Positions 9,201-46,531 of a DNA stretch of 46,531 bases are shown piece after piece. This stretch comes from Rhizaria sp. SCN 62-66 (lineage: Eukaryota). The stretch spans positions 1 to 46,531 of the forward strand of contig MEDY01000345.1 of assembly GCA_001724265.1 (NCBI GenBank). Direction: 5' to 3'. The notes below the pieces were generated by a model. The model did no database searches. It was not told where the DNA came from and saw only the letters and a program-made list of their open reading frames with translations. The translations under genes were made by a program, and so were the position numbers. The stretch's first letter is position 1. Every line of letters begins with the position of its first letter.

Positions 9201-10387
9201 TGCAGCGCCGCAGCGTCTTCCCCCTCAGCGCTTTGACTGATATCGCCGCCGTGGAGTGTGTTTCGTAGACTGGCGGCCTCGGCGCGGCGGAGGTCTTCGC
9301 GCTCTTTGACGGAGCGGACATAGCGCGACGACTCGTCGATGACCATCGCCGTCGCCGCGTTGGCCGGCCCGCCGTGAAAGAGATCCGGGTGCACGCGCAT
9401 CGCCACGCGCGCGGCATAGTCGACGGGGCTCTTCCGCAGCGCAGCCGCGGCCGAGAGCGGAGTGCGCACACTCGACTGCAGCCGCGCCGCGCCACTTGCG
9501 GTCGCGGTGGTGTCCTCGCCCCCGCCTTCCCCCATAATAGCGGGGCCGCCGCGGCGCGTGCGCGTGCGGGACGTGGGACCCGCTCCGGCGCCCGCGCCTG
9601 CGCCGTAGCTTGTGGAGTAGTGCGCTGCGTTAGCGGCTGCTTCGTCGTCCTCGATTTTGCGCTGCAGCCGCGCGCGCGCGCGTTCCTCGATCTCCTGCCA
9701 CGCCTCGCCCATTGCGCGGTCCGCGGCGGCGCGCGCGGCGCGGGCCTGCGGGGACAGGTCGAGCTCGAACTCCTCGCGCTCCAGCTCGCGCGCGCGCGGG
9801 ATCCGGGCCGCAAACGCGCGCTGCTCTTGCTCGATCGCCGCAGCGGAGCCGGCGCTAGCGGCGTCGTACTCGCCGGCCGCGCGGGAGAGCTGGGCGTGCT
9901 CGTGCTCGCGCAGCAAGCGCTGGTAGAGCTTCTCCTCGACCTGAGCCTCGAGCCGCGCCTGGTTGTACCCGGCGTCCGCGAGCGTCGTCTCGGTCTCCAT
10001 GTCTGTGGGGCGGCTTAGCTTGAGCAGGTCGAATTCGCTGTAGTCGTGCGCGCGGCGGCCAGAGCCCGGTAGGCGCTCGCCAGGCAGCGCACCCCAGGGG
10101 ACGCCGCCGTCGCTGGCGCCGTTCTTGCGGTGTTTGCGGCCGCCGGGGCCGTCGCTGTGAGCGTCGTCGGTGTTGCCGTCAGAGCCGCTGGCGCCGCTGC
10201 CAGGCGGGCGCGCGGTTGTAAAGTGTGCGCGCGGGCCTGAGCGCGCCAGGAGCAGCGAGGATGTTGTGGGTGTGAGTTGGGGACGCGCGGCTGTTGCGGA
10301 GAGCTGTGGCAGCCGCGCGGGGCCGACAAGAGCGGCCAAGTGGTGTGCTGAGCTCTGCAGCGCTCGGACGCGGGCGCACCCGAGCAT
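257..10387 (-). CDS. Giant (~3376 aa) intronless Ala-rich protein with a probable mitochondrial presequence and a TCAIM/DUF4460-like HPD domain; contains two in-frame TAG codons
   Basis: ORFs 4907..10387, 3944..4837 and 257..3859 share one frame and are separated only by TAG (4907-4909, 3944-3946) with open linkers. ATG at 10387, TGA at 257-259; 10131 nt = 3377 codons. The N-terminus is Arg/Ser/Ala-rich and lacks acidic residues. Motifs VHPDLF...HNQEQLALLN...LSFYVR recall TCAIM from memory, not from a search. Confidence 0.75.
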
Positions 10388-10853
10388 CGTGCGAACCTAG
10401 GACGGGCATGGGGAGGAAATAAAAAGAAAAGTTGGTATACTAAGCCAAATTAATACATAAGACGCTATTATTAACCTTATTGACGATTCAGTTAGCTCAG
10501 TGCACATCGCGAGAGATGACCGAGCGGCATTTCCTTCCCGAGTTTTTCGGTCCACAGCCGGTCGGCGAACGCGGTCGACAATCGCTCGCTTCGTTGGGCT
10601 GACGAGCAGCGCGTATTGGGAGCCTATTTAACAGGTCATTCCGTCGGAGAATATTGATGCCAGTATAATAATTGTCCTGTCGCGACGCTAAAGTATCTTT
10701 TTTGTTTAGCCTAGGTCGCCCACTATCTGTTTATGCCTTCTATGACAACGTTTGGTTGCGGTCGTGCTGTAGCCATGCTCTTTGCTCTGTTGCTTGCTCT
10801 TGTCTCACAATTTCCGACTCATGCGCTTTTCATTTTCTTGCTGCACAGAGACT

Positions 10854-14508: not shown

Positions 14509-14774
14509 ATGAGCAGCGGCCGTTCCCGGTCTAAGCGCGGCGGACGCACCGCCCCCGGGCCCGCGTTTCTGTCGTTTTCTTCGTCCGCGCGCAACGACTA
14601 CGACGACTACGGCGACGAGGAGGCCGAGTACAACGCCTACGACCCCTACGACGACGAGTACGACAACAACACAAACAGCCGGTCGCAGCGTCACTACGGA
14701 AACAACAACAGCAGGGGCCAGTACCAGCACCAGCAGGCTGTGCACGAAGCCTCATCGCCGTCCCCGTGCACCCC

Positions 14775-14806
<32 letters not shown>

Positions 14807-17800
14807 GCACGTCTGCCTCTAAGTCTGCGGGTGCAATGACAGCGGCTGACGCGGTGGCGGCGGCCGCTCGCGGTGGAGCCTCACCGGCGGGTGCAACTGC
14901 CCCGCGCCGCCGCACCCCGGCGTCTTTCACGCCGCTGCCTCATGTGCCGCCCTCTCTGCGCTTCAGCAACGGCGGCAATAGCGAAGGTTACAGTGAGACG
15001 ACGCTGGCGCTGGCGGGCGCGCTCGTGGAGGCTTTCCCCACAGCGGATTACTTCCTTGCCTGCTCCATACTTGCGCAGCTTGATGACGATATGGACGCCG
15101 CCGCCGCTGCGTTGCTTGAGATGGGGCTCGACGGCAACAGCAACAACGACAATGCACTGTCGAAGAGCAACATCAACAGCAGCAGCAACAACGCTGATGC
15201 TGAGACGGAGCAGGGTCAGGCGACTCCGCGCTGCGCCGCTGCCGCCACATCGAGCTCCACCGACGCAGTCACGTGCTCATCCTCATCTTCATTGTCGTCA
15301 GCATCTTCCTCGCTCTCTGGCCGTCAGAGTCAGAGCACCGGCGGCGGCACTGTCGTCGTCTCCAGCGTGTCTACGCCGCCCCCCGCGCCCGCGGACCGAC
15401 TGGGCGCTCTCAGCGACGACGTGCTCGCGCTCATCTGCCGCTACATTGGCGCACGCGACGCCGTCCCCGCGTTCCAGCAGCTCTCCACCCGGTGCGCCGC
15501 GTTCATCGCCCACCGCGGACTCGCGCGGCACTTGCTCTCGCGCGCACAGCGGCCCGTGGCGCTGTCGACGCTCCCGGGCCACGCCGCGCTTGCTCAGCTG
15601 CGGAGCGCGCGGGAACGCATGACGCGGCTCGACCTCAGCGGCTGCGCGGGCCACTTCACGCTCGCGGGCGCGCTCGACGCGGTCAACTGCGCGCAGATCG
15701 AGCATCTGTCGCTGCGCAAGCACACGGGGCTGCGCACCGCGACGCTCGCCGCGGCGCTGGCGAGGCTGCCCGCGCTTACGTCGCTGGATCTCTCTCACTC
15801 GGACGTTACCGGGGACATCCTGGAGGCGATCGTCGACGCGCCGCGCCTGCGCACGCTCTGTCTCGCACACACGAACGTGGACACGGTGGGCGTCGCGCTC
15901 GCGCTGCGCAGCTGCCAGGCGCTGGCGCACCTCGACCTGCGCGCAACGCAGGTCACCAAGGAGGTGCTCCCGCCCATCGAGGCGCACCCGGCGCTCGAGA
16001 CGCTGGACCTGTCCGGCTGCAACAAGCTCGAAGCGCTGGTGCTGTACACGCCGCCGCGCTCGCGCCTGCGCTCCGTCACCTGGACCGACTCGCGCCAGCT
16101 TAAGGGCGTGCTGCTCTTCTCCACCTCGCTCACTGCGCTCAAGTTCGACCGCTGCCACAACCTGTACCAGCTGCGCGTTGCGCTGCCCGCGCTCGAAACA
16201 CTCTCGCTGCGCGGGTGTTACGGCATGCGGCTGCTTGAGACCGTGCCGCACTCGTTCGCCGCCACGTCGCAGCTGCGGGCACGCGCGCTGGTCGAGAGCC
16301 GGATCTTTGCACCGCACTTCTGGCCCGCGCCGGCGCCGACTCTGCCGCCGCGCGCAGCCTGGCCGCTCGCCTCCGCATCCGCCGCAGCCGCTTCTGTCGC
16401 AGCAACGACAGCGACGACGGCTACGACGGCGACGACGGCGGCGGTGAGTGGCGGTGGCGGCGGCACAGTGCCGTCCGCGGCCGCACTGCTGTCGACGCCC
16501 GCGTTCCCGTGCCTTCGCGCGCTGGACCTGGGCTCGTGCTCCTTCCTGGTGCCTGCCGCGCTGGTGGCCACGCTGTCGCACCACTGCCCCGCGCTGGCGC
16601 GACTCGCGCTTGACGGACTGCGGCGCTTCCCGGCGTCCTTCTACGACGCGCTGGCCGCCTCGGCCGTGCCGGACTCATTGCACACGCTCGTGCTAGGCGG
16701 GGCGAACCTCGCGTCTTCCGGGGCAAAGACGCGGATGCTTGCGCGCATGTGCGCAGCGGCGGCTGCAGCCGCGGAGGCCGCAGGGACAGCGGGCAGGGCA
16801 GTGGCGGGCGCGGCGGGCGCGTGTGCGGGCGCTGACGGCGCAGCTGGTGGGGTTGCTGCCGACGAGCATAGGCAGGGGTCGCCGCAGATCATTCTCACGA
16901 ACCAAGCCAACAATAGCGGGAATAATAGCGCTGCGAGCAGCGCGGTAAACACGCCCAACGCGAAGTCTCCACCGCAACAGCAGCAGCAACAGCAGCAGGC
17001 GCTTCTGCGCAGCAACAGTGGCGACGCGAGCGCTGTCTCGACCCCCATTGCCGGCGGCCGCAAGCCGGGTGATGCCAGTGCGCTGACGAGTCCTGCAGAG
17101 GACGGCGGGGTTGACTGTAGCGCCAGCACGGTCCCGGGCGCGTGGTGCCATAGTACGACGGCGGGGGACGCTGCCGTGGTGGACATCGACGCGCTGTACG
17201 CACACTTGCCCCACGACGACCCGGACAGGCTGATTGCGGCGTTCTCGCGCCCGCGTCCGCTCTACAGCAACAGCAACAGCAACAACAACAGCGCTGTTAG
17301 TAACAACAATGAACCAAGGTCGGCCACTGTGCCGTCACTTCTGCTGCTGACCAGCGACGGCGACGCCAATGCTGCAGACAATGCTGACGACAACGACAAC
17401 GACGCAAAGGAAGACGGCATCGGCACTGGCACTGGCATTGGCACTGGTTTTAGCCCAGGCCCTGTCTTTAGCCATGTCTTTAGCCCTGGCGCAGACTCTG
17501 GTGCTGGCGCTGGCGCTGGCGCAGACTCTGGCACCGCCGGTCCTGGACTGGGCCGCACTGCCGCACTGCTGCGCGGGCTGGAGCGCGGCGCTCTGGCGGG
17601 CGAAGCTGCGCGCGCACTGCACTACGGCGCCTTTGCGCTGCTGTCGCGAGATGCACAGTGGGTGCAAACTGGCAGTCTGACGGCTCTGAGCGCCGTGCCG
17701 TCGCCATTTGTGGCCGCGGACACGCGGTACAACCGGCGCCGCGACGCAGAGGCCGCCGTGCGCGAAGGGCTTGCGGCGGGCATTGCGGCGGGAGGGACGG

Positions 17801-17943
17801 CTCCTGTCGCTGCGGTCGCTGCCGCGGTCCTCGCGTCCAAGGGCAAGGGCAAGGGGCCCTGTGCGAGTGCGAGCGCGAGTGTGAGTGCAAGTGTGATGGG
17901 CACGGGCCGGCTTGACTTTGATGCTGCGGAGAACGACTTTTAA
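14509..17943 (+). CDS. F-box/leucine-rich-repeat protein with an N-terminal CUE-like domain
   Basis: 1144-aa ORF. CUE-like LVEAFPTAD...DMDAAAAALLEM (~15020-15125); F-box-like LGALSDDVLALICRYI (~15400-15520); repeated LxxLDLSxC/S LRR units; polyQ and polyN tracts; TAA stop. Confidence 0.8.
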
Positions 17944-19018: not shown

Positions 19019-20646
19019 ATGTCCGATTTTACTTTAGCAAATTCACACTCTGAAGCAGGTACGATAAACCTCGAGTATCCACCTTCTCATTCCCTCGTCA
19101 TGACCCTGTGGATCCACGCTATGTTTCTATGCTTTCCAAGCCACGTTCTTCTGCAATGCCTCCCGCTCATCGCACATTTTCACCACATATCATTTAACAC
19201 ACGTTAAAATCGCCATACGCAGTGGACACAAGCCCGACACGCAAGGCTGCGGCGAAGCACCGCGTGGCGCCGGTGATTTCCTTCAGCCGCGGCGAGAAGG
19301 ACTTGTCGTACATGCCACCGTCCTCAGAGCTAGCCAACCTTGCTGCCGTGGGGCCCGGCCAGTACGACACACAAGCTGACTGGGCTATCTCCTCATCAGG
19401 CTTTACGATGTCTGCGCGCCTGCCAGTCTCGGATGCCACCCTTGCTCCGGGCCCGGGCACCTTCGATGTCGCCGCCGCCGCTTCCGCCGCCTCGCCCGCG
19501 CCGCGCACCGCCACCCTCCGCGGCAAGCCCACGATTTCCCACGAGACCGTCGCCCCCGGCCCCGGCACTTTCGACGTTGCTGGCGCGTCCGCCGCCGCGG
19601 GCGCCTCGGCGCGCGCCGCGACTCTCCGCGGCAAGCCCGTCGTCTCCCACGAGACCGTTGCGCCTGGCCCCGGCGCGTTCGACCTGGCCGCCGCCGCCGC
19701 GGCTGCCGCGCCTACCCCGCGCACGGCCGCGCTGCGCGGCAAGCCCGCCGTGTCGCACGCCACGCTGGCGCCCGGTCCCGGTGCTTACGACCACGGGCAC
19801 GCGACCGCGCGCGGCGCGTCCCCGACTCGCGCCGCTCTGCTGCGGGGCAAGCCCGCCGTGTCGCACGAAACAGCCGCGCCGGGCGCGGGGGCGTACACGC
19901 CTAGTCTTGCCGCCGTTGTCCCGCGCGCGCCCGCGGCCGCCGTGCGCCCGCGCCCGCGCTCGCCCTCGGCCTCGGCGACGGCCGCGGCCGCGGGACTTGG
20001 CCCCGGCAGCTACGACGTCGCCGCCGCCGACCCCGGGCGGTTCGGCGCCGGCGCGGGCCCGCTGCTGCGCGGCAAGCCCCGCGACACGCTCCCGCCCGCC
20101 GCCGCGGCCGGGACGGCGGCGCTGGGCGGCGCGGCGGCCATGGGCGCGGCCGCGGGCGCGAGTACGACTGCGGCTGCAGGTTCGGTGGGGCCCGGGAGCT
20201 ACGGCACGTTGCTGAGCCCGGGCGACTTCGGCTACGCGCTGCAACAGCAGCAGATGCGACAGCAGCAGCTCAAGGAGTCCAAGATGCGCACACAGCAGCT
20301 GCAGCAGCAACAGCAGCAGCAGCGCCGCGGCCGGACGTCTGTCAGCCCCCAGCGCTCGCAGACACTACCGCAGTCGCCGCAACCGCAGTCGCATTCGCTG
20401 TCTGCGATGTCGGCGACGGCCACGGCTGCGGTGCCGGTTGCTGCGGCGGCCGCGCCGTCGGGGAGTGGACGCTGCAACAGCCCCGGGAGCAGCGGCAGTC
20501 GCAGCCGCGCGGCCGGCAACGCCAGCACCAGCAGCAGTCTCAAGGACGCCGATGCAGAGGCTGAGGCTGCGGCGAAGACGAAGGCGACTGCGTTGGACAG
20601 CGAGGAGCGCAGGCTGACGGCGGAGATCGCTGCGATGGCAGTATGA
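19019..20646 (+). CDS. SHIPPO-1/ODF3-like PG-rich repeat protein (cilium/flagellum associated); exons 19019-19058 and 19223-20646
   Basis: Repeated PGPG(T/A/S)(F/Y)D motifs. A GTACGA..CAG phase-1 intron joins MSDFTLANSHSEA to VDTSPTRK in frame; TGA stop. Confidence 0.8.
19441..19900 (+). repeat. Intragenic tandem repeat of ~36-40 codons (APGPGxFD...LRGKPxxSHET)
   Basis: About four to five imperfect copies, visible in DNA (cgcggcaagccc...cacgagacc) and protein. Confidence 0.8.
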
Positions 20647-23604: not shown

Positions 23605-24921
23605 ATGGCTGCCCCTCAGACCCCCAAGTCACCTGCCTCTACGACGTCCTCGCCGGCGTCGTCGTCGTCGGCTGCCGCTGCCGCCGCAGTTGCGCGACCG
23701 ACCGTGAACCCCAAGGATTCTACATTCGAGCGCATTAAGTACAACACCATCTGGACGCTGACGATCCTGGTGATTTTCCTTACGGCCATGGTGCTCAACG
23801 TGCTCCAGGCCGTGGCATTGCCCGTGTACTACTTCCGCAAGACGTACTACCGCACGTGGATCCAGACGATCGACTTTTCGTACTCGTGCCTGCTCGTGTT
23901 CCTCATGGAGTGGAAGTCGGGCATGACCCACGTGTACTACGGCGACGCCGGACGCTTCCTCGACCGCCGCGGGCCCGGCGGCTCGCTCCCCTCGGCCATC
24001 TATATGTCCAACCACACTTCCTACGCCGACTGGGTGGTATTCTACGGCGTGCTGTGCCGCCAGGGCGGCGCGGGCGCGATCCGGTTCTTCCTCAAGGACC
24101 TGGCCAAGGTGCTTCCGGGCATCGGCTGGGGGTGCTACCTGTCCGAATTTTTCCTCGTGCGCAAGAGCTCTACGCGCGGCGACTGGAACCGCGACGGCGA
24201 CGTCATCGTCAACCGCCTCAAGTCCTTCGCGGAGACGGGCGATCTGATCTACCCGGCCATCTTCCCCGAGGGCACATTCCACGACGGCGCGGACCCGACC
24301 CTGGTGGAGCGGACGCAGAAGTTCGCCAAGGAGAACGGGCTGTCTGTGCTCGAGTACTTGCTCACCCCGCGCGTCCGCGGCTTCTACGCGTGCACGTCGA
24401 ACCTGCGCGGCCACGCCGAGTACATCGTCGACCAGACGATCGCTTTCACGGGCAACAAGGACCGCTCGCAGGTGCCTTACTACACCGCCAAGCCTCTCTC
24501 AGACGCCACGCGCGTGATGCCCGACGCCGCCGACCTGCTGGCGTACCGCGGGCCGGAGCACGTGCACATCCACATCCGTCTGATTCCGCTCGCGGACGTG
24601 CCGACTGATGAGGCCGGCGCCAAGCAGTTCCTGATGAAGGTGTGGGACGAGAAAGAGACGCTGCTGCGGGACTTCCGCGCCAACGGCGACTGCTTCCCCG
24701 GCCAGGCGCACACCCGGCCCAACGCGCTGTGGGGCTCGGCGGCCTCCACGGGCGGCGTCGGGTACCTAGTATGGCACTTCTTGCTCTGGGTGGTGATGAT
24801 GTTCTCGCTTGGATACGCACTCTCGCTCATGTCCATGTGGTTGCTTGGAAACGTCGTGCTCGTCATCGGCGCGTGCGCGCTTGTGGGCATCCTCGTCCAG
24901 CACTTCTGGAAGGACAAGTAA
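23605..24921 (+). CDS. PlsC-family lysophospholipid acyltransferase (AGPAT/LCLAT1-like)
   Basis: 438-aa ORF with catalytic NHxxxxD (NHTSYAD), FFLK...PGIGWG, IFPEGT and LLTPR motifs, plus N- and C-terminal TM segments; TAA stop. Confidence 0.92.
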   Translation: MAAPQTPKSPASTTSSPASSSSAAAAAAVARPTVNPKDSTFERIKYNTIWTLTILVIFLTAMVLNVLQAVALPVYYFRKTYYRTWIQTIDFSYSCLLVFLMEWKSGMTHVYYGDAGRFLDRRGPGGSLPSAIYMSNHTSYADWVVFYGVLCRQGGAGAIRFFLKDLAKVLPGIGWGCYLSEFFLVRKSSTRGDWNRDGDVIVNRLKSFAETGDLIYPAIFPEGTFHDGADPTLVERTQKFAKENGLSVLEYLLTPRVRGFYACTSNLRGHAEYIVDQTIAFTGNKDRSQVPYYTAKPLSDATRVMPDAADLLAYRGPEHVHIHIRLIPLADVPTDEAGAKQFLMKVWDEKETLLRDFRANGDCFPGQAHTRPNALWGSAASTGGVGYLVWHFLLWVVMMFSLGYALSLMSMWLLGNVVLVIGACALVGILVQHFWKDK

Positions 24922-29450: not shown

Positions 29451-32400
29451 TCACTCGTCACCGGTGACGACATTGCGTTTGCACATAGGGCAGAGCTTGG
29501 AGCGTTCCCACCACTTGCTGCCGCATTCCCAGTGCAGCTGATGGCGGCAGTGCAGCGGCGTGACCACCTCGTCGCCGGCCTTCATTTGCTCGAAGCAGAT
29601 GAGGCACTCGCCGCAGCCACCGTTGCCTTCGCTGGGTGCCGCGAGCGTCTCGCGCGGCAGCTGCGCGCGCTCCTCCGCGTTCAGCCCCACGGGACCCATC
29701 GCGGCGCCCGCGCTGAGGCCCGCGAGCAGCGCGTTGGCGCCCACGCCGACCTGCGCCAGCGCCATAAGAAGCCCGCCCAGGATGCCAGCCATCGCGACCG
29801 TGCCGCTGCTGCTGTCACCGCTGTTGTTGCTGTTGCTGTTGCTGTTGTTGTTGCTGCTGGCGTCGGGCAGAGAGGCGAAGGGCGCGACGGGTAGCGCAAT
29901 GGCGTGGCTGGTACGCATGACGCCGTGGCGGTATTCCACAAAGGCAGCACCACCGTCTTCGTCGTCGTCATCATCATCGCTATCGTTGCGACTGCGGCTG
30001 CGACTCTCACCGTCCTGACTGTTGACGAAGTCCTCCAGACCCCACGGCTCGCGAGCGCGGCCACTGCGGCTGCTGTTACTGCCGCTGCCATGCTCAAGCT
30101 CCTCAGCGTCACGGCGGGCGAGTGCCATCGCGACCAGTGCGCGCGCGCCCTCAGTCCCGCCCATCGCGCGCAGCAGCGCAGGCGAGCCTCCCACAGGCTG
30201 CTGTCCCTGCGCCTGGCCCTGTTGGGAGACGACAGCGGCCGCGGCTGCAGCAAGGGCTTCGGCACTGCCGGGTCCGGTGCGGAGCGACGCGCGCGGCAAT
30301 ACAAGCATCACCGCGCGCGCGCCTGAGGGGTCGCTAACCAGCGCCAGGTGCGGGAACGCGGAGCCGCGGCCCAGCGCGGACATGGCGCGGAAGTTAGGCC
30401 GTGTCTGCGCCTCGGCGCGCGGGCGCAGTTCGGGCAGGAACATCTCCTCCGCGCGCGAGCGCCCGCGCGGCGACCGCGTCGCTGACGCTGACGTTGACGC
30501 TGCGGGCGCGGAGCCAGAAGCAGAAGCGGAGCCAGAGGCAGACGAGGGCGAGAGCGGCAGCGGCATCGGGTCCGAGTGCGGCAGGAGCGAGCGCGCAAGC
30601 CCGGAGCTGGTGACGAGCGACAGCAGCCTCACTTGCGCCATCTGCAGGTGTAGCTGCGTGAGCCGCACTTCCTGTGTCAAGCGGTCGGCCTCGCGCGCCA
30701 AACGACGCCGCAGCAGGGCCGCTGCGCCCGAACGCACGCGCGCCGCGGCCGCCGCCTCCTCCACCGCATCCGCGCTCTCGCGCTCGCTCGTGTCACCGCG
30801 GGCGCTGGCGCTGGCGCTGGCGGCATTGAGGAGGCTGTCTGCGGCGGGCGGCGCGGGCGGAAGTGAGTCGAGCATGGACATAATCTCGGCCAGCGCGAGC
30901 AAGTGCGCGTCCGCGGCGGCGGCGCGCGCCTGCGCCTGTTGCTGGCGCCGGAGAAGCGCGGGCATGAGCGCGATTACACCAGCGTCGCGCGCGTCCTCGC
31001 CGTCGCGACCGCGCTCCACAACACTGTTCTCGCCCGCACCGCCGCTGTTGCTACTGCTGCTGCTGCTGTTGTTGAGGGAGGCAAGCTGGCGCAGCGGCGC
31101 GGCCAGCGGCAGTGCGTCGCCGTTGCCTTCGGAGTCGTCAAACCCGTCGGGCACGTCCGCGCGCGAGCGCCGCAGCAGCGCGTCAGCCTGCGCCGTGAGC
31201 GCAGTGAGTGGGTCCGAGGCGTCGGCCTCGGCGCGCGCGCGCTCGCGGGCCAGCGCGCGCCGCACGCCATCCACCGCGGGCGCAGTGTCAGCGTCGGCGT
31301 CGGCGCGCGCGCTGGTGTCGACCTGCGCGCCGTTGCGCGAGGAGCGGAGCACGCTGCGGTGCACAGGCCGTGCATCGGAGGGCGCGGAGGAGTCGAAGCT
31401 CCAGTGGTTCAGCGACGCCTGCGCGTTGTTGCCGCGAGCCCCGCCGCCGTTGCGGGCGTGGCGTGCGCCCCATACGCTGCAGTCGTCGTCATCCTCCTCA
31501 TAGTCGTCATCGCCGTCGTCTTCGTCGTCGCCGTCGTCGGAGCCGTCGCTGTCGCGCTTGTCTTGGCGATTGTTTCTGCGGTTGTTGCTGGCTGTGGCCG
31601 TGCCGGCAGATCCCGCTGCGGGGGAGCGTGTCGCGGCGTTGTTTGCAGCGGCGCGCCTGGGCCTGCGGTTGCTAGGAACGCCGCCGCTGTCGCTGCCACT
31701 CTCTTCTCCATCTTCCAGCGCTCCGGAGGCCATGGTCATGATGCCGCGCACGGCGCCCATCATGCCGCTGAACATCGACACCATCGCGCGCGCAGTCGCG
31801 CCGTCGACAGTGCCAGCAGCCGCCGGTGCAGCCGCAGCCGGTGCAGCTGGTGTCTCAGCCGCGGCCGACGCCGCCGGTGCAGGGACTGCAGTGGAGGCTG
31901 TCGGAGCAGCGGCTGCACGAGGACTGCTCTTATCGTTGGCAGTCTTACTCTCGTCGTCAGTCTTGGTCGCAGTATCCGGCTTCTTCGCATTCTTATCGTG
32001 ATCACTGTCTTTGCCTTCATTGTCGTTGATGTTGACTTTCTCGCCGCTGACGTCCTCACCATCGTTGTCTTTCTTCTTGCCGCCATCCGCAGCCGCCTCG
32101 GCCTCTTCCTTGGCAATAGCCTTGCGCAGCGCGGCAATGACACGGTCATTACGCTTCTTGGTTGCGGCAATATTGGCGCGTGCTTGCTTCTCAAACTCTT
32201 CGTCACTTGTATCTGGCGTGAGATCACTGTCGCTGCCACGACGGCCGAAACGTGCAGCAGTTTTTCGAGCAGCTCCTGCGCGCTGGGGCCACCCGGAACA
32301 AGCATACATTCGAGATCCTCTTCCTCGTCTTCCTCATCATCTGGGTTGCTTTTGTCGTCGTCGTCGTCGTCGTCGTGGTCGTCGTCGTCTTCGTCGTGGC

Positions 32401-34891
32401 GCTTGTTGACGTTGCCAGTCGCAGCAGCAGTAGCCGGCGCATCGGCCGCTACCACTGCCGGACTCGCCTCTGTAGGAGCCACACGAGGAGTGCTGCTGCT
32501 GCTGCTGTTGCTGTTATTGGTGTCAATAGCCTTGTTCTTCTGATCGGACTTCGCGTCAGTGTCAGGCGTCTTCTTCTTTTCGCTGTCACTGACTTCGTTC
32601 TTGCCGTCAGCGTCGTGGGCCTTTTCGCCGTCATTGTCGTCATCGTCTTTGTCATCCGTGTCTTTCTTCTTGCCACCGCCTGCGGCCTCCTCGGCCTCTT
32701 CTTTGGCAATCGCCTTACGGAGCGCAGCAATGATCCGATCATTACGCTTTTTAGTGGCGGCAATATTGGCGCGTGCTTGCTTCTCAAACTCTTCGTCACT
32801 TGTATCTGGCGTGAGATCACTGTCGCTGCCACGACGGCCGAAACGTGCAGCAGTTTGCGCATCGACCATCATCTCGAGCAGTTCTTGTGCGGTAGGGCCG
32901 CCGGGCACGAGCATGCATTCGAGGTCCTCTTCCTCATCTTCGTCATCGTTGTCGCTCTTGTCGTTGTCATCGTCGTCATCGTCGTCGTCACTGGCCTTCT
33001 TCTTGTCGTGGAACTTCTTGTCCTTCTTCTCGATGTCTGCGTCGGCATTGACAGTGGCAGTCTGAGGCTTGCTCTTCGTGTCGTCGTCACTTGTCGCAGA
33101 GCCACTCTTAGCAGCAGCGGCGGCGTCGATATTCTTGGTCTCACTGCCATCAGCTTCATTTGCAGACTTCAGTGTGCCCTTAGTCGCAGCGATGTCAACC
33201 GCCTTGTCATCAGCAACCTTAGGTGCAGCGACCTCAACAGCAGCCTCAGGTGTAGCACCAACTCCATCTGCAGCCTTAGCCTCGGGCTCCTTGACATCAG
33301 CGTCATGAGCAGCATCAGACCCCAAATCCGACTTCGGCGCAGACACTGGTGCAGGCACATGCTTCGGTGTCGGAACCAGCTTCGGTTCAAGCTTCACCTC
33401 ACGCACAGGCTCAAGCTTCAACTCGGGCTTAACAGGCTCCGGCTCAGGCTTAACCTCATGTACAGGCTCAGGTTTCGAGTCAGGCTTGTTGTTATCATCA
33501 TTGTCGCCGGCCTTGGCTGTCGGACTGCCACGCTTATCCCCAATGGCGTCCTCGCTAGTCTCCGCAGCAGCAACAACAACTGCAGCAGCAGCAACATGGG
33601 CGTCAGCTGCATGCGTCACTGCGGGGGCCACAACCGGAGCGAGGGGAGCCTTGGCTGACGGCGGCCTGTTGCTGTCGTGGTCACCTGAGGGCCAGCGCGC
33701 CAGTGTACGCACTGGGGCCGCGGAAAAACCGCCCGGCAGCACTGTACCAGCACTAGCGCCAGCGCCCGCGCCGGCGCCAGCAGGAGAGGCATGAACGGGA
33801 GCGCGCGCTGCTGCAGACGCCCGAGCACGGGTCGCTGCAGTCGCCGCCGTCGCAGCAGCGCCAGCGCCAGCGCTGGTGCCAGCGCCAACGCGGGGCGGAG
33901 GGCTGCCTGCGGTCTGGCGCGGGTTAGCATGTGCACCGACGGGACGCGCTGCGTGTATGCCACCGAGAGGTGCGCGGACGTTACTCGTGTTCGGAGCGTG
34001 GCCGTGACCGGGACCGACAGCGGTAGCGGCAGCGGGCCGTATGCTGGAGCCAGCGCGCACAGCCGCGGGGGCGCCGGTAGCGCTAACAGGCGCTGCGGCT
34101 GCGGCGGCGGTCGGGAGGCGCGTGCCGCCACTGGTGGGGGGCCGCACCTGCACGCGGGTGCCCGCAGCGAGACCCAGGTGGAGCGCGGGGGCTGCGGGCG
34201 TCTGAGTCACCGGCACGGGTGCGGGCGTGCGTGAGGGCGCGTGTGCGGGCGCGTGTGCAGCGACGCGACCGTGTGCAGCGCCAGCGGCAGTGCCGGTGGC
34301 TGCGGTGCCGCGGTGAGCCCCGGGCGCGGCGGTGGCGGCCGTCGTGGAGAGGCTCGAGGGGCGCACGGAGGGCACGAAGGAGGAGAACGAGCGCGGCGCA
34401 GGGCGCGCCATGGGCTGCACCTGCGGGCGACCGAAGCGGGCGCCGGGGCGCGAGGCGGCGGCGGCCGGGGCCGATGTGCGCGCTGCGGGAGCCCCTGTCG
34501 CGGCCGTCCTCGTTGCGGCTGCCGTCGGGCCAGTCGTAGAGGCAGCAGCTGGGGCGGGTTGAGTGCGAGCGGGAGCGGCCGAGACCGAGCGGCGCGATGC
34601 GGGGACAGTCGTGCTAGCAACGGGCTTGGCGGCGGACGGGGGCATGGGAACTCGAGTAATCGGTGCTGCACTGGGCGTCCTCGTGACTGATGCTGGCGCC
34701 GGGCCGGAGGGAGGATGGGGCTTGGCGTGAGCGGGAGGGTGGCCCTATGAGCTGACAGATGCAGGACCACGAATGCGCGAACCGGTGCGCGCAGCGGGGG
34801 CTTGCTGTTGTGGTCTGGCGCCGAATGGCGCAGTCGGGGCCACGCCCGGGACCACTGGAGGGCGCGGGTTTAGACTTGTTGTGTTAGGCAT
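29451..34891 (-). CDS. Large low-complexity protein with a C-terminal RING-H2 finger (putative E3 ligase); one in-frame TAG (34745-34747) and an apparent 16-nt deletion frameshift at ~32263
   Basis: C-terminal CLICFEQMKAGDEVVTPLHCRHQLHWECGSKWWERSKLCPMCK, then TGA. The frame of ORF 31760..34645 extends upstream through a single TAG to an ATG at 34891 (MPNTTSLNPRPP...). It switches to the frame of ORF 29451..32309 inside an internal duplication. Confidence 0.7.
32070..32990. repeat. Internal tandem duplication (~590-nt spacing) in the RING gene with a 100-nt identical core (32164-32263 = 32757-32856)
   Basis: Both copies encode EEEDLECMLVPGGP(T/S)AQELLE...TAARFGRRGSDSDLTPDTSDEEFEKQARANIAATKKRNDR. 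Confidence 0.9.
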
Positions 34892-35498: not shown

Positions 35499-37230
35499 TT
35501 AGAATGAGAGCCCATTGTGCAGCACGACACGCGGACCCATCTTGCCCGGCACCAGAGACCGCTGCGCCCTGATGCCCTTGCCCACGGCCCCATTCGCGCC
35601 GCCGCTACTGACACTTCCTACCGGCACATTGCTGCCTCCGCCGTTGCCGTGACAAGCCGCCCGATTGCCGGCCCCAGTGACGAGCGCAAGCGCGCGCGGG
35701 TCAATCGCTGCACACGAGCGCGCAAGCGCCTTGGCGCGCGTCAGCGACGTCGGACTGCGCTTGACAGTGTCGAGCGGAGCGGGCAGGCCTGACTTGGCTT
35801 GCGCCGCAGGACCGCCCTTCGACGGGGACGCGGGCTCTTTGCTTTCCTGCGGCGACTCAGCCCGCGGCAGCCGCGCCGCGGGGTGCTGTTGACCGCGCAG
35901 CAGGGTGGCGTTAACGCGCGGCTCTGGCGCGTCCAATGCGAGCGAAACGGGGTGCTGGACCGAGAAATTGTCGGGAAACGCCCGGACCTGCTGTTGCTAC
36001 TGCACACGTGACTGTGACGAGGGGGTGATGGCCACAAGCGAGGAGTGCAGTCCATGAGCGCAGCCGCTGGTCGTGGACCATTGTCGCGCCAGCGCTTGCG
36101 CTTGCGCCTGCGCTGCGGTGGCCTCGGCAGCGGCTGCAGCGGCAGATGCTGTGTGCGTGTGCGTGTGCGCGACCGTGCTCTGGACAGGATGCGGCAGATA
36201 CGGGCCGTATGCGCCAGCGGGAGCAAATGCCGTCGCAGATGCAGCGGTAGCGCCACACGCGCACACATGGTAGCCACCAGCAGCGCAGCCACAAGCGACA
36301 CCGCTATAGCCAACTCCGTAGCCGGAAACAGAGCTGGTGCCAGTGCTATGGTTGCTGGCCAGAGCCGCAGCGGGCAATGTCACACAGGCACTATTGCTAC
36401 TGCTGCTAACAAGATTCGCGTTGTTGTTGGTGATGTTGCTGCTAACGTTGACCGCGATAGTGCGCTCAGCGTAGTAGCGCAGCACAGCATCGCGACCCAT
36501 CACAGCGGCCGCCACCGCAGCGTCCGCGCGCGACGCTACCACGGGCGCCCACACGCTGGGGCCTGTCAGACCGTCGCCCGTGCTAGCCGCAGTCTGCGCG
36601 GCTGCGGCTGACGCGGTTCCAGAGTTCGCGAGCCGCGCCGCAGCGGCGGCGGCGACTGCGGCGGCCGCAGGTGGGTGCGGCTGCGACGCGAAAAGCCCAG
36701 CCGCGGAGGCGCCAGGCGTTACCACAATGCGCCCACCGGGCAGAGCGGCGCGGGCAGCGGGCGCAAGCGCGCGCTCGGCCTGTCCCAGCGCGAAGGACGA
36801 GCTGGGGCGCGGGGCCGCGGCGGCGGCGGCGCGCACGGCAGCAGCGCGCGCACCGCCGGCAAGCATCGTGGCCTCCTGCGCGCGCTTGCGCGGAGTGCGC
36901 GTCATGCGGACAGGCCGTGCCGCCAGTGTCGCGGGCGAGGAAACGTCCCAGAAAGAGTTGGGCAGACCGCGGGGGCCGTATGCGCGTGTGACGTGCGCAG
37001 AGGCGACAGCGTGCAGTGCAGCGCAGGCGGCGGCGCGCGAGGGAGGTGTGACCGGCGCGCTCTGAGAAACTTGGCGCTGCCACTCAGTCTGTTAAGGGTC
37101 ACAAATCGGGGCATGCTGTGTGAGAACAAAATTCGAATTTGTGCCGGTTTAGGCCGTTATCAATGCATGTGAAGACGAACAAACTGGACCACACACGTAC
37201 CTCTGAAAATGGTTGAGGATCAATCTGCAT
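35499..37230 (-). CDS. Hypothetical Ala-rich protein (~539 aa); exons 37230-37201 and 37088-35499; in-frame TAG at 35997-35999
   Basis: MQIDPQPFSE|TEWQRQ... joined by a phase-0 GTACGT..AACAG intron. ORFs 35997..36905 and 35499..35936 are co-frame across the TAG (context SRVQ*QQQVRA); TAA stop. Confidence 0.7.
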
Positions 37231-37983
37231 TTTTCAGATCTAATATAAGGGAATTGCAATAAAATTGGGGTATGTTGTGTGAGAACGTAAAAGTAATACT
37301 TTTATACAGTCATATTCAAAATCACGACAGCTGGTCTTGCGTTGTGCTTGAAAAGGCTGAATGCAGGCGAGGATCGAGGCGAGATAGCGCGCGAAATGTG
37401 GAGGCTCAAACCACGAGCTATATCTCTTACAGCCAAAAGTACATTTTGAATAATCATACGATCTCCACAAAAAGTTACCGTGCAAATCATAACATTTCGG
37501 TTTCACGATAGGGACATGTTACAATCGATGTTTCTTTAGCATGGTCTGTCTTTTTTTGCTGATGAGTGCGATGCAGTTGACTCATGAGTGCAATCTTACA
37601 GAGATCTTTCAGGGATGATCAAATCCGGTACAATAAAGATTGATACTATACATGCCAACAAACCATGTAACAAAAAATCGAGCGCAAAATATCAACGATC
37701 CCACATTCCGAGACATATGGTGTTTTCTCTCTTGTTATACTGTGTACAAAACCGTATGTGGTGGCGAGCGCGCATGCCGAAGGAGGGTTGAAGAACTCCG
37801 CAAAAGACATCAGAAGTTGCCACAAATACTGTAAATTGGAATGATGCTTCTAGTTTGGAATATAAACGCAACAAATCTCTTTGGTTCATATTTTTTCTAT
37901 CGAAAATACTCTTATTTTATCACGTTTAGAAGCTCCTTCGCCGCGTCGGTTTTCCGCGTGCCTCCAGCTCGTTCAAACCCTGC

Positions 37984-40900
37984 ATGTCGAAGGACCTCAA
38001 GACCCCTTTGTTGGGTTCTCCGCCGCCCTCAGATGGCAATTTCCCCAAGTTTGCGCCCTCCGACTTTGCGTCTGACTCGTCAAGCTCGTTCTCGGCCTCT
38101 CATCCAAGCGGCAACAGTGCTGTCAACGCTAATAACACAGACTCCTATGTCATGCCTTCTTCAAGCTCCGTGTCGTCCATGAAGACCCCAGGCGGGCTCG
38201 CTGCAATCATCCAGCGACGTAAGGCGCGCTCACAGAGCAGCTCATTACCAGATTCCGCGAGCGACAGCAGCGAGAAGAAGGACAAGGGCGCGGCCCGCGA
38301 GGCCGTGTTGTGGACGCGGTGGATGCTCTCGCTGCTGCTTATCATCGCCGACGCGCTGCTGTGGGGTGTCGGCGTCTTCGCGGCCGAGTACGGGCTCAAT
38401 TGGGCGCGTTTTACGGCTGCGCTGGACCATTATGACGTTGAAAGCGACCTCGCCGACCTCATGGTGGCATCCGCAGTGCGTTGCTTTTTCGTGTTGTTCA
38501 ACCTTGTTACGCTGCGCAACGACGAGCGCCGCAGCGCCGTGCTCTCCTTCTTCTCCTACTGGTCTGTCGCGCTGTCCGCCATTGCCGTGGTGTGCAAGTG
38601 TATTCTCTACGCCGAGTGGGGCAACCGCGTCGCCCCGTCCGTGCTGCTCGCGCTGGCGGTGCCACTGACGCTGGCCCAGTTCTACGCGCAGACAGGCCTC
38701 CAGCGACCGCTGCGGCCCGGAGAGGGTGACCCAGTCACGGCCGAGGAGGTCGCCGCCAAGGCCGAGCGCGCGCGCGCCAATGCGGCGGCGTAGCAGCGCG
38801 CATCCGAAGTCGCTGCGACGCTGCAGGGGGCCGAGCTCGAGGCGCACCTCGCCAAGGAGGCCGCGCGCGCCAAGTCCGCTGCGTACGTCGAGACGACGCT
38901 GGCCAACTCTGCGGCGCTGTCGGCGTCGAAGCAGCGCATGCGCGGGCGCGAGCTACTGTTGCTGCTGCAGCCGTATTTCTGGCCCGACGGATGGGCGAAC
39001 CGCGTGCGCGTCGTACTCACGTGGATTGCGCTCGGCGCCTCGCGCGTTATGAGCATCATGGCGCCGCTCTTTGTTGGCCGCGCGACGGACATGCTCGTGC
39101 GCGACCACGAAGTGCCGTGGGTGTACATCTCTCTCTACTGCGCGCTGACGTTTGGCTCGACCGGGTTCAAGCAGCTGCAAGCGGTGTTTTACATGCGCGT
39201 GAAGCAAACGGCGTTTGCGCAGGTGTCGAGCTTCACGTTCCGCCACATCCACAGCTTGTCGCTGCAGTACCACCTGAATAAGAAACTCGGCAACGTGCTG
39301 CGCAGCATTGATCGCGGTATTTCCTCCGCCGAGACTGTCGTGTCGGCCGTGTTCCTGCTTATGCTGCCCGCGCTCGTCGAATGCACTGTGGTGTTTGTCA
39401 TCTTCTACATGCACTACAACGAGCCGCAACTCTCTGCTCTCGTCTTCGCGTTTGTTGTTGCGTACCTCGTGCTCACGGTCAAGCTTACGCTGATGCGCAA
39501 GAGTCTGCGCCGCGCAGCGAACAAGTACGACAACGAGCTGCACGACCGCGCGACGGACTCGCTCATAAACTACGAGACCGTCAAGTACTTTGGCAACGAG
39601 GAGTACGAGACCGCGCGCTACACTGAGGCCGTCACCAAGTTCCAGGTACGTTATCGAATGCTATTATTACATTATATTGAACTCCTCATCTCCTAAGACA
39701 TTGTTCCACTGAACTATATGACTAATTCGCCCCCAAATTTCCTTTATTTTTGATCGTATTGTTTCTTTCCAGTCGTACGCAGTGTCTACGCAGCGGTATA
39801 TGGCGCTGCTGAACGCTACTCAAACGATGACGATCCAATTTTGCCTCGCGTGCTGCATGTTCGTGACCGCGACGCGTGTGGCTGCGGGCGACATGACCAT
39901 CGGCCAGTTCTCGGCCATCAACGCCTACGTGCTGCAGGTTTTCGCGCCGCTTTCTGCGATGGGCAACCTGTACGACCAGATTGTGCAGGCTTTCACGGAC
40001 CTCGCGAACCTGTCTGAGCTGCTGGCGGAGGAGCCCGACGTTGTGGATGAGCCCGATGCGCGGCCGCTGCAGTTGCGTGATCCGGCCCGCGGCGCGACGA
40101 TCGAGTTCCGCGACGTGTGCTTCAACTACCCCGAGCAGACCGCAGGGCTGCGCAACATCAGCTTCACTGTGCCCGCGGGGACGACGACGGCGCTTGTCGG
40201 TACCACGGGCAGCGGCAAGTCGACGTGCGCGCGCCTGCTGTTCCGCTTCTTCGACCTGAAATCGGGACAGATCCTCATCGACGGACAGGACGCCAGCAAG
40301 GTCACGCAAGCCGGGCTGCGCGCGATGCTTAGCGTTGTCGGTCAAGACACCGTGCTATTTAACGACACGCTGTACCACAATATCTGCTACGGCCGCCTCA
40401 ACGCGACGCATGAGGAGGTCGAGGCTGCGTGTCGCAGCGCGCAGATTCTTGACTTCATCCTCTCGCTTAAGGCGCAGTTTGAGACCAAGGTCGGGGAGCG
40501 TGGTCTGCGCCTCTCCGGCGGCGAGCGCCAGCGCATTGCCATTGCACGCGCACTGCTTAAGGACTCCCCCATTGTGCTGCTCGACGAGGCCACTTCCGCG
40601 CTTGACACGGTCAAGGAGATGGAGATTCAGGTACGTTATCTCAACATCAATAGTCGGCTTCATGTAACACTTGGTGAAAGCGCTGCGAACAACATCATAT
40701 TGTAGTTTTTACTGAACTGGCGAATTTCTACTTAATTTCTCATGTTACTCACGTCTTGTTTGCTTCTTACACGTACACACAGGGCGCGCTGCGTTCCCTG
40801 GAGAAGGGCCGCACGACTCTTGTTATCGCGCACCGCCTGAGCACTGTGATGCACGCCGAGCAGATCCTTGTCCTGGAGCAGGGCGTGATCATTGAGCGCG

Positions 40901-41652
40901 GCACGCACGCCGAACTCATCGCCCTGGGCGGCAAGTACGCTGCGCTGTGGAACCAGCAGGCCACCAAGGCTACCGAAGACGCCGCGCGCGCCGCCGCCGA
41001 GGCGCAGGCCGAGGCCGAGGCCGAGATCGAGGCCGCCACCGAGCACAGCGGCAACGACGGCAAGCACGGCGCAGGCGCTGGCGCTGGGCCCCGCCGGCCC
41101 GGAGGCGTTAACACCACCTTCGGCGCCCCTTCCCCTGTGTCTGTCGGCACTGGCTCTGGCTCTGGCTCTGGCTCTGGCTTTGCTTCTGGTGCTGGCGCTG
41201 GTGCTGGACTGCCCCCGCGCGCGCCTGCGTTGCGCTCGCGCTCACCGTCACAGCCCACTCTGTTCTCCCCGTCCAACTCGTCCCACTCCCCTTCTCCCGC
41301 CGCCTCAGCGCCCGGGTCTGCGGCGGCGGCGTCGGTGGCCGTGACGGGCTCGGAGACGCCGTACGGCCGCCGCAGCCCCGCGGTCTCGGACGCGGGTTTC
41401 CGCGAGTATGTTGACAGCGAAGCGTTGATGCTGCCCTCGGTCGAGAGAGCCATGTCCTCCGCCGCCGCGGCCGCGGAAGCCGCCGCCGCCGAGGCCTTGC
41501 CGGAGCCGGAACCCCGCGTCGCCGGCGCAGCCCAGTCGCAGGCTAAGGCCGTGCCTGAGCTGGCCGATGCTGAGGAGGAAGAGGAGGAGCAACAACAGAC
41601 CCACTCGACTGCTGCTGGATCTGGCAAGAAGAAGGGCAAAGGCCGGAAGTAA
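37984..41652 (+). CDS. ABCB half-transporter, ABCB6/HMT1/ATM1 family, with an N-terminal extra TM domain (~1129 aa); exons 37984-39645, 39773-40630, 40783-41652; in-frame TAG at 38791-38793
   Basis: Family motifs [25 protein letters not shown]; Walker [10 protein letters not shown]; signature [15 protein letters not shown]; Walker [18 protein letters not shown]. Two phase-0 GTACGT..CAG introns. The linker 38794-38937 is open in frame after the TAG; TAA stop. Confidence 0.92.
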
Positions 41653-44446: not shown

Positions 44447-46531
44447 TTAAACTGCTGCTTCTATGACGGCGCGTGTCGCGCCGCCAAACGACGTGTCGGC
44501 GAGCAGCGACGCGAGGTCGATCAACCCCTAGTCGCCGCCGTCCAGGGCGGGCGCGGCCGCGGGCGGAGCATCACTAGAGCCGCTGGCGCCGGCGAAAGCG
44601 AGCATCACGAACGGGTCGCCGTCGTTCTGCTTCGGCTTGGCGGGGGTCGCCAAGTAATCTATACGCAGTCGTGATAAATCTATCGTTGATATGGTGTCGT
44701 TGTGAGTCGCGCACCTGTCCATTCTATCGCAACTCGAGATTCTGCTCAGCGATAGCGCGCTGCCACTGTCGTCGCGCTCGACATCGCCCAGCGCGGCAGG
44801 GACAATGCCTCTCTGCGACGTGCGCCGCGCCTGCGCCTGCGGGGAAGACACTGCGGAGCCTGCGGATGAACCCTCCGCGAACTACACGTCCGGAGCGCCC
44901 GACAAGGCCAACATGCGCTCGACGTCCTTGATCTTGATGCGGACGGCGCGCACTACGGGCATCGCGAAGTCGGACTTAGCCAGCTCGTCGGCGCTGGCGC
45001 AGGCGTTAATCACGTCCTCGAGCATCGTCGCCGACTCGGTCGCCGCGCGCGCCGGCGGGTCCGTCAGCGCCGTTGCAAGCGGGGTCAGCCGCTTAGCGCG
45101 CAAGACCGAGAGCAACTCAACATACCTACACTGAGGAGCATGTGGCGCAAATAACAATCACCATCGTAATGCATCCACGATAACGCCATGACAATGCACG
45201 GATTTACGTGGTGACTGCAGTACAAACTCACGCAGCCCTTGCCAGTAACTGCGCCAGTCACTTGGGCACCCATTGGATGCGAGCATTGTCGACTGACTCG
45301 TTGACATCCTGCATGGGTACATCGGCAATAATAGCATAACACCCAAGCGCAGCTGTGCAAATAAGCGGGTGTTCCTGATTGTGGGCTTTCTCTACGACAT
45401 AGCAGTAGTCAACATGCACATTATTGACAAGAAATTTCTTGCCATTTTTGTCACTCAGAAGCCCCTAGAATTTACGCTGAAAGCTACCTTTGAGGTCTGA
45501 TGCACGATCGCGATATCGCCAGTGCTGAACAGGGGTTGTGACGTACTCGACCTGTAAGAGAGTGATACGCAGATCAACGGCTGGGATACCCGATAAGTCC
45601 TCGCTACTACTTGCACCCGTGTCATTAACTGCGTTCAAGAGCGCGGCAGTACTCGACTTTGTGCCAGGAGCAGCGTTGACGAGTACCTTTGAGCACGGCG
45701 TCGGGTCCTCCTTGGCAAAACGGTATGCGTCGACTGCAACATGATTGAGGTCCTCGGGGAAAGCCATGATGGCATGTTGGTTGTCATTAGCTAGTAGCTG
45801 CAACACAAAGTGTTCGAGCTTCTCTGCCACATGATCTGCCGTTAGCGCAACACCAGAAATAGTATTGCATGGCGTGTCGTCTGTAGCTTGGCTTGAAGAA
45901 ATCTTTGCCATCAGCGACAACTGTGAAAGGCCCGAAGAAGTCGCCGTGTCAATGACGTAGCCAGTCGAAGAACCCCGGGTCTATGAGCGCTTTAACGCAT
46001 AGACTCGAAAGGGCTGAGGGTGATTGCATGCGAACAAAGCTGCCTTGAAAAAAGAACCTTTAGCACTGGAAGTAAGAGGCTGAAAAAAGAACGAACGAAT
46101 AGCACACATCCCGGCGATATTCTGTTCACTCTTTTCCGCGATCACCTGGTTTAACACCCAAGCAGCCAACTCCGAGGTTACCATGAAGACAGGTTTCCGC
46201 CAGATTTTGACTTTTTTTTTCGGGTCGGATTCACTGTTTTCCGGGTCGGATTCATTGTGTTCCGAGTCGGATGCATCATGGCTGCAAGACCTGTAGGAAA
46301 ACAAGTGACCTGAGTCGATTGCAGGCAGCACAACAAGGTGGCGCGCTTCATGGTTGCGTGCAAGTGAGGCGCTGTTGCTCGAATATGCTTCAATAGAGCA
46401 AGGTGGTGACTGAATTGTAACGAAATGAGAGACATCAGGCGTGGACAGGCGGTATAGGAATGACAAAGATTGGAATACCGAATCAGGCATGTTGCGGACA
46501 ACGTCAAGCATGATTTCAGCGTTAAAATATT
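44447..46531 (-). CDS. 5'-partial hypothetical gene (or decaying gene) with four in-frame TAG codons (45981, 45465, 44882, 44528); junction near 45130-45320 unresolved
   Basis: ORFs 45981..46511 and 45465..45920 are co-frame, and the frame is open from the window end to a TGA at 45258 except for two TAGs. ORFs 44882..45157 and 44528..44851 are co-frame and open to a TAA at 44447 except for two TAGs. Joining the two blocks needs an intron without a consensus donor. No recognisable domain. Confidence 0.45.

Follow-up and report, generated by a model that had tools for sequence, protein, structure and literature searches.

Eukaryotic genetic codes in which UAG and UAA have different meanings are rare, and those described come from a single fornicate, a single rhizarian and a few lineages of ciliates (PMC5304391, PMC11687900). 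In the flagellate Iotanema spirale (Metamonada, Fornicata), UAG was reported to encode Gln while UAA and UGA act as stops, based on Gln at 22 of 28 hyperconserved columns together with likelihood, 204 UAG codons in 126 genes, and 104 UAA and 15 UGA stops, and the proposed cause was a tRNA-Gln(CUA) derived from tRNA-Gln(CUG) (Panek et al. 2017, PMC5304391). UAG was also assigned to Gln in the phyllopharyngean ciliates Hartmannula sinica and Trochilia petrani (McGowan et al. 2024, PMC11687900), and to Leu in the rhizarian exLh (Sainouroidea) (PMC5304391) and in three uncultured phyllopharyngean ciliates (PMC11687900). UAA and UAG together (UAR) are read as Gln in many ciliates, hexamitin diplomonads and ulvophycean green algae (PMC11687900, PMC2984419), and 'code 15' for Blepharisma is described as an error (PMC5304391). 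Here we analyzed contig MEDY01000345.1 from Rhizaria sp. SCN 62-66 (assembly GCA_001724265.1) over its 46,531 nucleotides (hereafter, the window), where six in-frame TAG codons lie inside the coding sequence of four genes, and weighed whether TAG is read as a sense codon in this organism and which amino acid it probably specifies.

TAG codons inside coding sequence

Reading frames were searched with TAA and TGA alone as stops, which gave nine in-frame TAGs in long gene-bearing frames. An earlier interpretation made from the letters alone (the sequence-only reading) had arrived at the same count, but only six of the nine are in coding sequence (at 4909, 3946, 35999, 38791, 45983 and 45467), while the other three (10399, 37927 and 34747) are in leaders without coding signal. 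TAG thus occurs inside coding sequence in the window and is not seen as a gene end, the eight gene ends being four TAA and four TGA codons.

We measured coding signal as codon log-odds trained on 3614 codons of TAG-free genes. The in-frame log-odds stayed positive after the TAGs at 4909, 3946, 35999 and 38791, with values of 0.14 to 0.51 per codon (0.40 and 0.29 for the two sites of gene G1 and 0.14 for gene G7), compared with −0.4 to −1.0 in the other sense frames. Past all seven TAA or TGA gene ends tested, the log-odds were negative, the guanine plus cytosine (GC) content was 0.3–0.5 and 1–9 stops were found within 100 codons. Every stop triplet in the six frames was then scanned, free of any gene model, for stop-free and coding-like flanks of 60 codons on both sides. 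None of the 606 TAA and 1201 TGA triplets passed, compared with four of the 527 TAG triplets (38791, 4909, 3946 and 16643); the TAG at 16643 was rejected as false, since it lies on the antisense strand of a leucine-rich repeat (LRR) gene. With a required margin over all five other frames, no TAA or TGA passed at any setting and one to three TAGs did, where 3946 passed always and 38791 and 4909 passed with longer flanks (three TAGs at 100 codons). With the other five frames of the same stretch as reference, the chance that a downstream frame lacks TAA and TGA was 1.7e-9 for G1, 4e-4 for G9, 0.01 for the ABC transporter gene and 0.07 for G7. TAA and TGA remain stops, as neither was found between coding-like flanks and both coding signal and GC content collapse behind them.

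Gene G1 (257..10387, minus strand) has 3376 codons, ends in TGA and encodes an Ala-rich, low-complexity orphan protein. Its two in-frame TAGs are at 4907..4909, in the context D-N-T-TAG-G-H-N, and at 3944..3946, in the context R-I-Q-TAG-D-H-A, the latter with 1228 open codons behind it and passing every threshold tried. The codon log-odds in three parts of the gene were 0.37, 0.40 and 0.29 per codon, whereas the other sense frames gave −0.5 to −0.7. An open reading frame (ORF) of 1826 residues that ends at TAG 4909 is on record from five contigs, and its sole variant differs at one of the 1826 residues with the TAG kept. Because strain variation is nearly nil (1/1826 residues), no TAG/CAG polymorphism is visible. 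No Pfam domain was found in G1, and a 1200-residue stretch with both TAGs matched only the window's own three ORFs among 1.84 billion representative proteins.

The gene layout of an ABCB6/HMT1-like half transporter is independent support for reading across TAG. The gene (37984..41652, plus strand; 1129 codons, ending in TAA) comprises exons at 37984–39645, 39773–40630 and 40783–41652, matches the Pfam families ABC_membrane (E 3e-24) and ABC_tran (E 3e-30), and has human ABCB6 as its best match among solved structures (E 1e-37). Its in-frame TAG at 38791..38793 is in the context A-A-A-TAG-Q-R-A, in the linker between an N-terminal four-helix membrane domain and the transporter core. The ORF 5' of this TAG spans 269 codons with four hydrophobic helices, whereas the core transporter is encoded downstream; the 48 codons from the TAG to the next ATG have in-frame log-odds of 0.51 per codon, and the human ABCB6 match opens 14 residues before that first ATG with no in-frame ATG in between. 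If the TAG were not read through, the core would need an internal ATG behind a 269-codon ORF. Read across the TAG, the protein has the layout of the ABCB6/HMT1 type, in which an extra N-terminal membrane domain, ABC_membrane and ABC_tran are in one chain. The relative P0001, 48% identical in the core, likewise carries four helices and the core in a single chain of 808 residues, and its N-terminal part matches the ORF 5' of the TAG weakly in a two-sequence comparison (12 of 32 residues identical, BLASTP E 0.006). The Pfam N-terminal family of ABCB6 was found at E up to 10 neither in the window protein nor in P0001, and the linker around the TAG is not alignable.

The two introns of this gene, at 39646–39772 (127 bases) and 40631–40782 (152 bases), are AT-rich, open as CAG|GTACGTTATC and close in CAG, and their exon joints agree residue for residue with the relatives P0001 and P0002. 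All ten donor bases GTACGTTATC are identical in both introns, and a donor fixed to this degree suggests a genome with few introns and strict splice signals. A search with exon 1 gave two matches only, P0001 (48%) and P0002 (70%), the latter without the N-terminal part. The ORF of P0002, encoded on a 6.1-kb contig, starts with VKQNAF midway through the membrane domain, where it faces residue 405 of exon 1; a contig end, an intron or an in-frame stop in the relative may account for this start. The ORF is continuous across both intron places of the window gene. A metagenome scan with exon 2 gave 80 loci, none above 58% identity, which look like ordinary ATM1-type genes, and the P0002 contig was not among them. 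Viral contigs gave three distant matches only, and an exact 42-base word of the gene was not found in prokaryotic genome contigs. About 300 bases past the stop codon, we also noted a run of 34 T at 41953–41986.

Gene G9 (45258..46529, minus strand) has at least 423 codons with its 5' end outside the window, a GC content of about 0.5 and a TGA end. Its in-frame TAGs are at 45981..45983 (K-R-S-TAG-T-R-G, with intron signals absent nearby) and at 45465..45467 (R-K-F-TAG-G-L-L). The G9 frame contains no TAA or TGA, whereas the other five frames average 15.0 of them (Poisson P 3e-7). No relatives were found among proteins of 232–741 residues, and shorter proteins gave only the window's own 148-residue ORF; matches were also absent from the PDB and from viral contigs. 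A contig of run X5 is about 88% identical (33 other letters in 268) over 45387–45654, a segment that extends across TAG 45467, and this contig is from a related species or a paralogue.

Gene G7 (35499..36905, minus strand) has 468 codons and encodes an Ala/Ser-rich protein of no known family, with no Pfam family detected at E up to 10. Its in-frame TAG at 35997..35999 is inside V-Q-TAG-Q-Q-Q-V and is followed by 165 open codons until the TAA at 35499, past which the GC content drops to 0.37–0.49. The G7 frame has the best score of the six and is the sole stop-free frame on both sides of the TAG. This is the weakest of the six sites, however, and the case rests mainly on G1, the ABC transporter gene and G9.

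Assembly error was rejected as the source of the TAGs, since the same TAGs are found in independent assemblies of other studies. For the TAGs at 3946, 4909 and 38791, ORFs ending there have been recorded from three to seven contigs. DNA contigs of two other studies cross TAG 35999, one with 0 differences over 3756 bases and one with 1 difference over 1538 bases, and a contig of another study crosses TAG 38791 with 0 differences over 2296 bases. Window parts without such cover were not counted as evidence. Introns at the TAGs were also rejected, with no GTACGT-type donor near any of the six and no dips in GC content, which was 0.70–0.78 on both sides at four of the TAGs. Within the window there are no paralogous copies of the TAG neighborhoods. 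We rated the support for in-frame UAG in coding sequence as strong at 38791, 3946, 4909, 45983 and 45467 and as moderate at 35999. Given the continuity of frame and coding signal, the finding of only TAG inside coding sequence, the absence of TAG from the eight gene ends, the ABC transporter layout and the independent assemblies, we concluded that TAG is very probably a sense codon in this organism.

Residue assignment and competing explanations

Three of the six coding TAGs adjoin a Gln codon. On the minus strand of G7, the letters 36005..35985 read GTG CAG TAG CAA CAG CAG GTC (V-Q-*-Q-Q-Q-V), as the sequence-only reading had stated, and both further Gln-adjoining sites that it listed are also present, ATC CAG TAG GAC (TAG 3946..3944) and GCG TAG CAG CGC (TAG 38791..38793). 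The remaining three coding TAGs, in the contexts T-TAG-G, S-TAG-T and F-TAG-G, have no Gln neighbor. In the genes of the window, 24% of Gln residues have a Gln neighbor, compared with 1–11% for the other 19 residues, so that the probability of at least three of six sites adjoining Gln was 0.156 for Gln, 0.019 for Trp, 0.0135 for Ile and less than 0.008 for all others (0.0066 for Leu, 0.0047 for Glu, 0.0031 for Tyr and 0.0069 for Lys). These neighboring residues correspond to a likelihood ratio of about 8 to 50 for Gln over other residues. A neighbor-likelihood classifier also placed Q first at window sizes of 1–3, leading by 3.3–4.0 log units for the four strong sites and by 2.6–3.5 for all six, where in calibration with four sites Q was called in 49–58% of trials when true and in 0–14% when another residue was true. 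Across the nine genes, 6 TAG, 269 CAG and 58 CAA codons were counted, and TAG would hence make up 6 of 333 putative Gln codons.

With a flat prior, the neighbor probabilities gave about 0.6 for Gln, and a prior from known eukaryotic reassignments gave a higher figure, which we discounted for the small number of sites, a hypothesis prompted by the data and the possible origin of the TAGs from CAG. We therefore put the probability that TAG specifies Gln, as a rare third Gln codon of an organism in which TAA and TGA are still stops, at roughly 0.6. The proposal of the sequence-only reading that UAG encodes Gln is accordingly well supported as far as the non-stop role of TAG is concerned, whereas Gln is a best guess drawn from the neighboring residues and from other eukaryotes.

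In the mechanism that we propose, UAG would have dropped out of the stop set and be read as a rare sense codon, leaving TAA and TGA to end genes. A tRNA-Gln(CUA) may have arisen from tRNA-Gln(CUG) by one base change, and eRF1 may by now recognize UAG poorly, in line with proposals for other eukaryotes that use this code; we infer that the amino acid and the tRNA and eRF1 changes are likely as set out here. New TAGs would come from CAG by neutral C-to-T change, mostly at poorly constrained places, and it is in such places (a poly-Q run, linkers and orphan proteins) that the TAGs were seen.

Several observations weigh against this reading. None of the six coding TAGs is at a conserved column, so that the residue rests on context; the sequence-only reading had likewise placed no TAG in a known conserved column, and we found that no Pfam domain spans any of them. 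The Gln-context argument draws on six sites and on a hypothesis prompted by the same data, and an origin of TAG from CAG leaves the same Q-rich context whatever TAG now means. TAG 35999 fails the strict two-flank coding test, the coding signal of G7 is weaker, and its open frame after the TAG is only mildly unlikely by chance (P 0.07). The 3614 codons of conserved TAG-free genes include no TAG, so that TAG is a rare codon at best, and one that is perhaps read poorly. Under the codon usage seen here, which is rich in GC at third codon positions (GC3), TAG would account for about 66% of random nonsense mutations, and the probability of six TAGs in six under gene decay is 0.08–0.10; that all six are TAG is therefore weak on its own, and the eight gene ends are a small sample. 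G1, G7 and G9 have no homologues, so that the integrity of these genes is not checkable, and a frame break between gene G6 and the neighboring RING-finger gene indicates that at least one gene of the window is damaged or mis-assembled. Among the RNA contigs listed, none crosses a TAG site.

These points bear unequally on the explanations other than a Gln codon. Other eukaryotes demonstrate that a reassigned stop can take another residue, with UAG read as Leu in exLh (PMC5304391) and in the three uncultured phyllopharyngean ciliates, and UAR read as Glu in peritrichs and as Tyr in Mesodinium (PMC11687900). Were TAG a sense codon for Leu, Glu, Tyr, Lys, Trp or some other residue in the window, the Q-rich context would only record its origin from CAG at unconstrained positions. 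Three of the six sites do lack a Gln neighbor, and a change from Q to another residue could be tolerable in the linkers and orphan proteins where all of the sites are found. We regard such an assignment as unlikely, since the observed adjacency to Gln has a probability of 0.019 at most for any other residue, against 0.156 for Gln, and the classifier puts Q first. Under the standard code, leaky TAG stops could instead be read by near-cognate tRNA-Gln(CUG) with the aid of nearby Gln codons: for yeast, a preprint describes higher readthrough, with Gln as the inserted residue, through a Q-stop-Q motif and a Gln-rich transcript (PMC13192750), TAG 35999 is exactly Q-TAG-Q, and TAGs 38791 and 35999 are both followed by CAA or CAG. 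Yet Q-TAG-Q is found at one of the six sites and CAA or CAG after two, so that the sites as a set lack the readthrough context. Production of the ABC transporter core, of two thirds of the G1 protein and of most of the G9 protein would moreover hang on low-level readthrough, and none of eight genes ends in TAG, although a GC-rich genome with the standard code is expected to use it, which makes leaky stops quite improbable.

Real stops, whether between same-frame neighboring genes or as recent nonsense mutations in decaying genes, seem slightly less probable again. The TAG bias of random nonsense mutations under this codon usage (about two thirds), the frame break of G6 and the RING-finger gene and the lack of homologues for G1, G7 and G9 would all suit them, but frame, coding signal and high GC content run without gaps over the TAGs, compared with intergenic DNA that is kilobases long at a GC content of 0.45–0.55, and no in-frame ATG exists from TAG 38791 to the start of the ABCB6 match. 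Gene decay in particular is an unlikely source, as it would require four of nine genes in 46 kb to be broken without TAA, TGA or further damage, and the sequence is unchanged in assemblies of several studies from 2015 to 2025. Hardly any weight was given to mRNA editing of TAG to CAG (U to C) or to TAGs within short introns. In their favor, none of the RNA contigs listed extends over any of the six sites. The two real introns, of 127 and 152 bases, are however rich in AT and open with GTACGTTATC, nothing alike is seen around the TAGs, and six separate in-frame introns would be needed; editing of nuclear mRNA from U to C is not known as a general mechanism. A TAG codon that probably specifies Gln was thus retained as the preferred reading.

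Leader TAGs and other features of the contig

The three TAGs outside coding sequence are a few codons 5' of the first ATG in regions that are AT-rich or free of coding signal, and none adjoins a Gln codon; they were accordingly taken as ordinary leader and not counted. The leader TAG of G1 (10397..10399, minus strand) is 12 bases before the ATG, with an upstream GC content of 0.43 and GC3 of 0.34, which is non-coding, and that of the ABC transporter gene (37927..37929, plus strand) has a non-coding upstream region with a GC content of 0.35; a contig from an RNA library covers 37731–38028 in this leader region. The TAG at 34745..34747 (minus strand), 5' of the G6 ATG at 34645, has in-frame log-odds of −0.25 and −0.27 on its two sides and hence no coding signal. 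On the minus strand, three TAGs are followed by a Gly or Asp codon and then His, namely TAG GGC CAC (4904–4909), TAG GAC CAC (3941–3946) and TAG GGC CAC (34742–34747), a likeness that includes the non-coding TAG 34747 and may be chance.

The ORFs with eukaryotic domains, the introns in the ABC transporter gene and the occurrence in wastewater and bioreactor metagenomes mark the window as nuclear DNA from an uncultured eukaryote. The GC content is 60% overall, with stretches of 0.64–0.73 interleaved with stretches of 0.45–0.57, and the GC-rich stretches correspond to the long ORFs with eukaryotic domains (leucine-rich repeats, SHIPPO, lysophospholipid acyltransferase, RING finger and ABC half transporter). 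Window DNA recurs in contigs from five studies (2015–2025) of bioreactor, wastewater, microbial-fuel-cell and activated-sludge metagenomes, and one of these studies may be the source of the window. In other assemblies the contig reaches 96 kb. No tRNA genes (ARAGORN), no Rfam families, no marker gene and no eRF1 gene were found in the window.

Four domain-bearing genes without TAG served as controls, comprising an LRR protein (14509..17943, plus strand, TAA end), a SHIPPO-repeat (sperm-tail PG-rich) protein (19222..20646, plus strand, TGA end), a lysophospholipid acyltransferase (23605..24921, plus strand, TAA end) and a RING-finger protein (29451..32309, minus strand, TGA end). An Atlas search with the acyltransferase returned only broad eukaryotic acyltransferase clusters, and no acyltransferase matches were found in viral contigs or prokaryotic genome contigs. 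On the minus strand, G6 (31760–34645) and the RING-finger gene (29451–32309) look like one gene with a frame break at 32250–32300. G6 contains two copies of a unit ...EDLECMLVPGGP[ST]AQELLE..., and past the second copy the continuation TAARFGRRGSDSDLTPDTSDEEFEKQARANIAATKKRND is in the frame of the RING-finger gene, with a one-base shift at a run of five A; the frame break may reflect an indel in the assembly, a true frameshift or damage to the gene. The minus strand within 27200–29200, for example at 27953–28252, also carries what is left of a pogo-like DDE_1 transposase (Pfam E 1.8e-4). In this stretch, contig depth was far above that of the surroundings in runs X6, X3 and X4, with identical alternative letters in all four runs, and the remnant probably represents a mobile element that this organism has in multiple copies.

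Comparison with known codes

In the literature collection that we searched, UAG reassignment was not described for any wastewater or GC-rich non-ciliate eukaryote. A tentative interpretation, to which we give somewhat less than even odds, is that an undescribed non-ciliate lineage, GC-rich, intron-poor, probably flagellated and living in wastewater reactors, has independently split UAG from UAA and uses UAG as a rare Gln codon. If so, the lineage may have been caught early in reassignment, with UAG still confined to unconstrained positions, and the rarity of UAG (6 of 333 putative Gln codons) could show such an early stage. Codes that split UAG from UAA bear on the capture of stop codons one at a time, and a further lineage would matter in being outside the ciliates and in a very different, GC-rich genome. 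The organism is in an accessible engineered habitat, and both DNA data (runs X1–X4) and poly(A) RNA data (an activated-sludge study with runs X6, X10 and sister runs) are public. Standard pipelines cut its proteins at TAG, and the pieces of G1 and of the ABC transporter are separate proteins in a public protein collection.

At 60% GC, with several genes within 46 kb, spacers of kilobase length and introns of 127–152 bases with a GTACGT start, the window does not look like a ciliate macronuclear genome. In these features it differs from Hartmannula and Trochilia, although the assignment itself is alike in that UAG alone would be turned to Gln with UAA kept as a stop, a change described as having arisen independently more than once (PMC11687900). 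Codes with UAR as Gln resemble the present case in the step from a stop to Gln through a one-step neighbor of CAG or CAA, but in them UAA is reassigned too, whereas TAA in the window ends four of eight genes and is never found in frame. Readthrough in a Gln context in yeast shares with our case the Q-stop-Q motif and Gln insertion, which fits 35999, but it is described as a partial leak at premature stops under the standard code (PMC13192750), leaving the other five sites and the absence of TAG ends unexplained. In exLh, UAG is similarly uncoupled from UAA, with UAA and UGA as stops, and is described as rare in highly expressed genes (PMC5304391), a parallel to the absence of TAG from the conserved genes of the window; UAG is at conserved Leu columns in that organism (PMC5304391), however, while the context here points to Gln. 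The likeness to Iotanema spirale includes reassignment of UAG alone, UAA and UGA ending genes, no use of UAG as a terminator and a non-ciliate host (PMC5304391), but instead of the many UAG codons reported there, six TAGs were found in nine genes of the window, none of them in a conserved column, and TAA and TGA are equal as gene ends (four and four). In sum, the case joins a known rare kind of code in which UAG is sense and UAA and UGA are stops.

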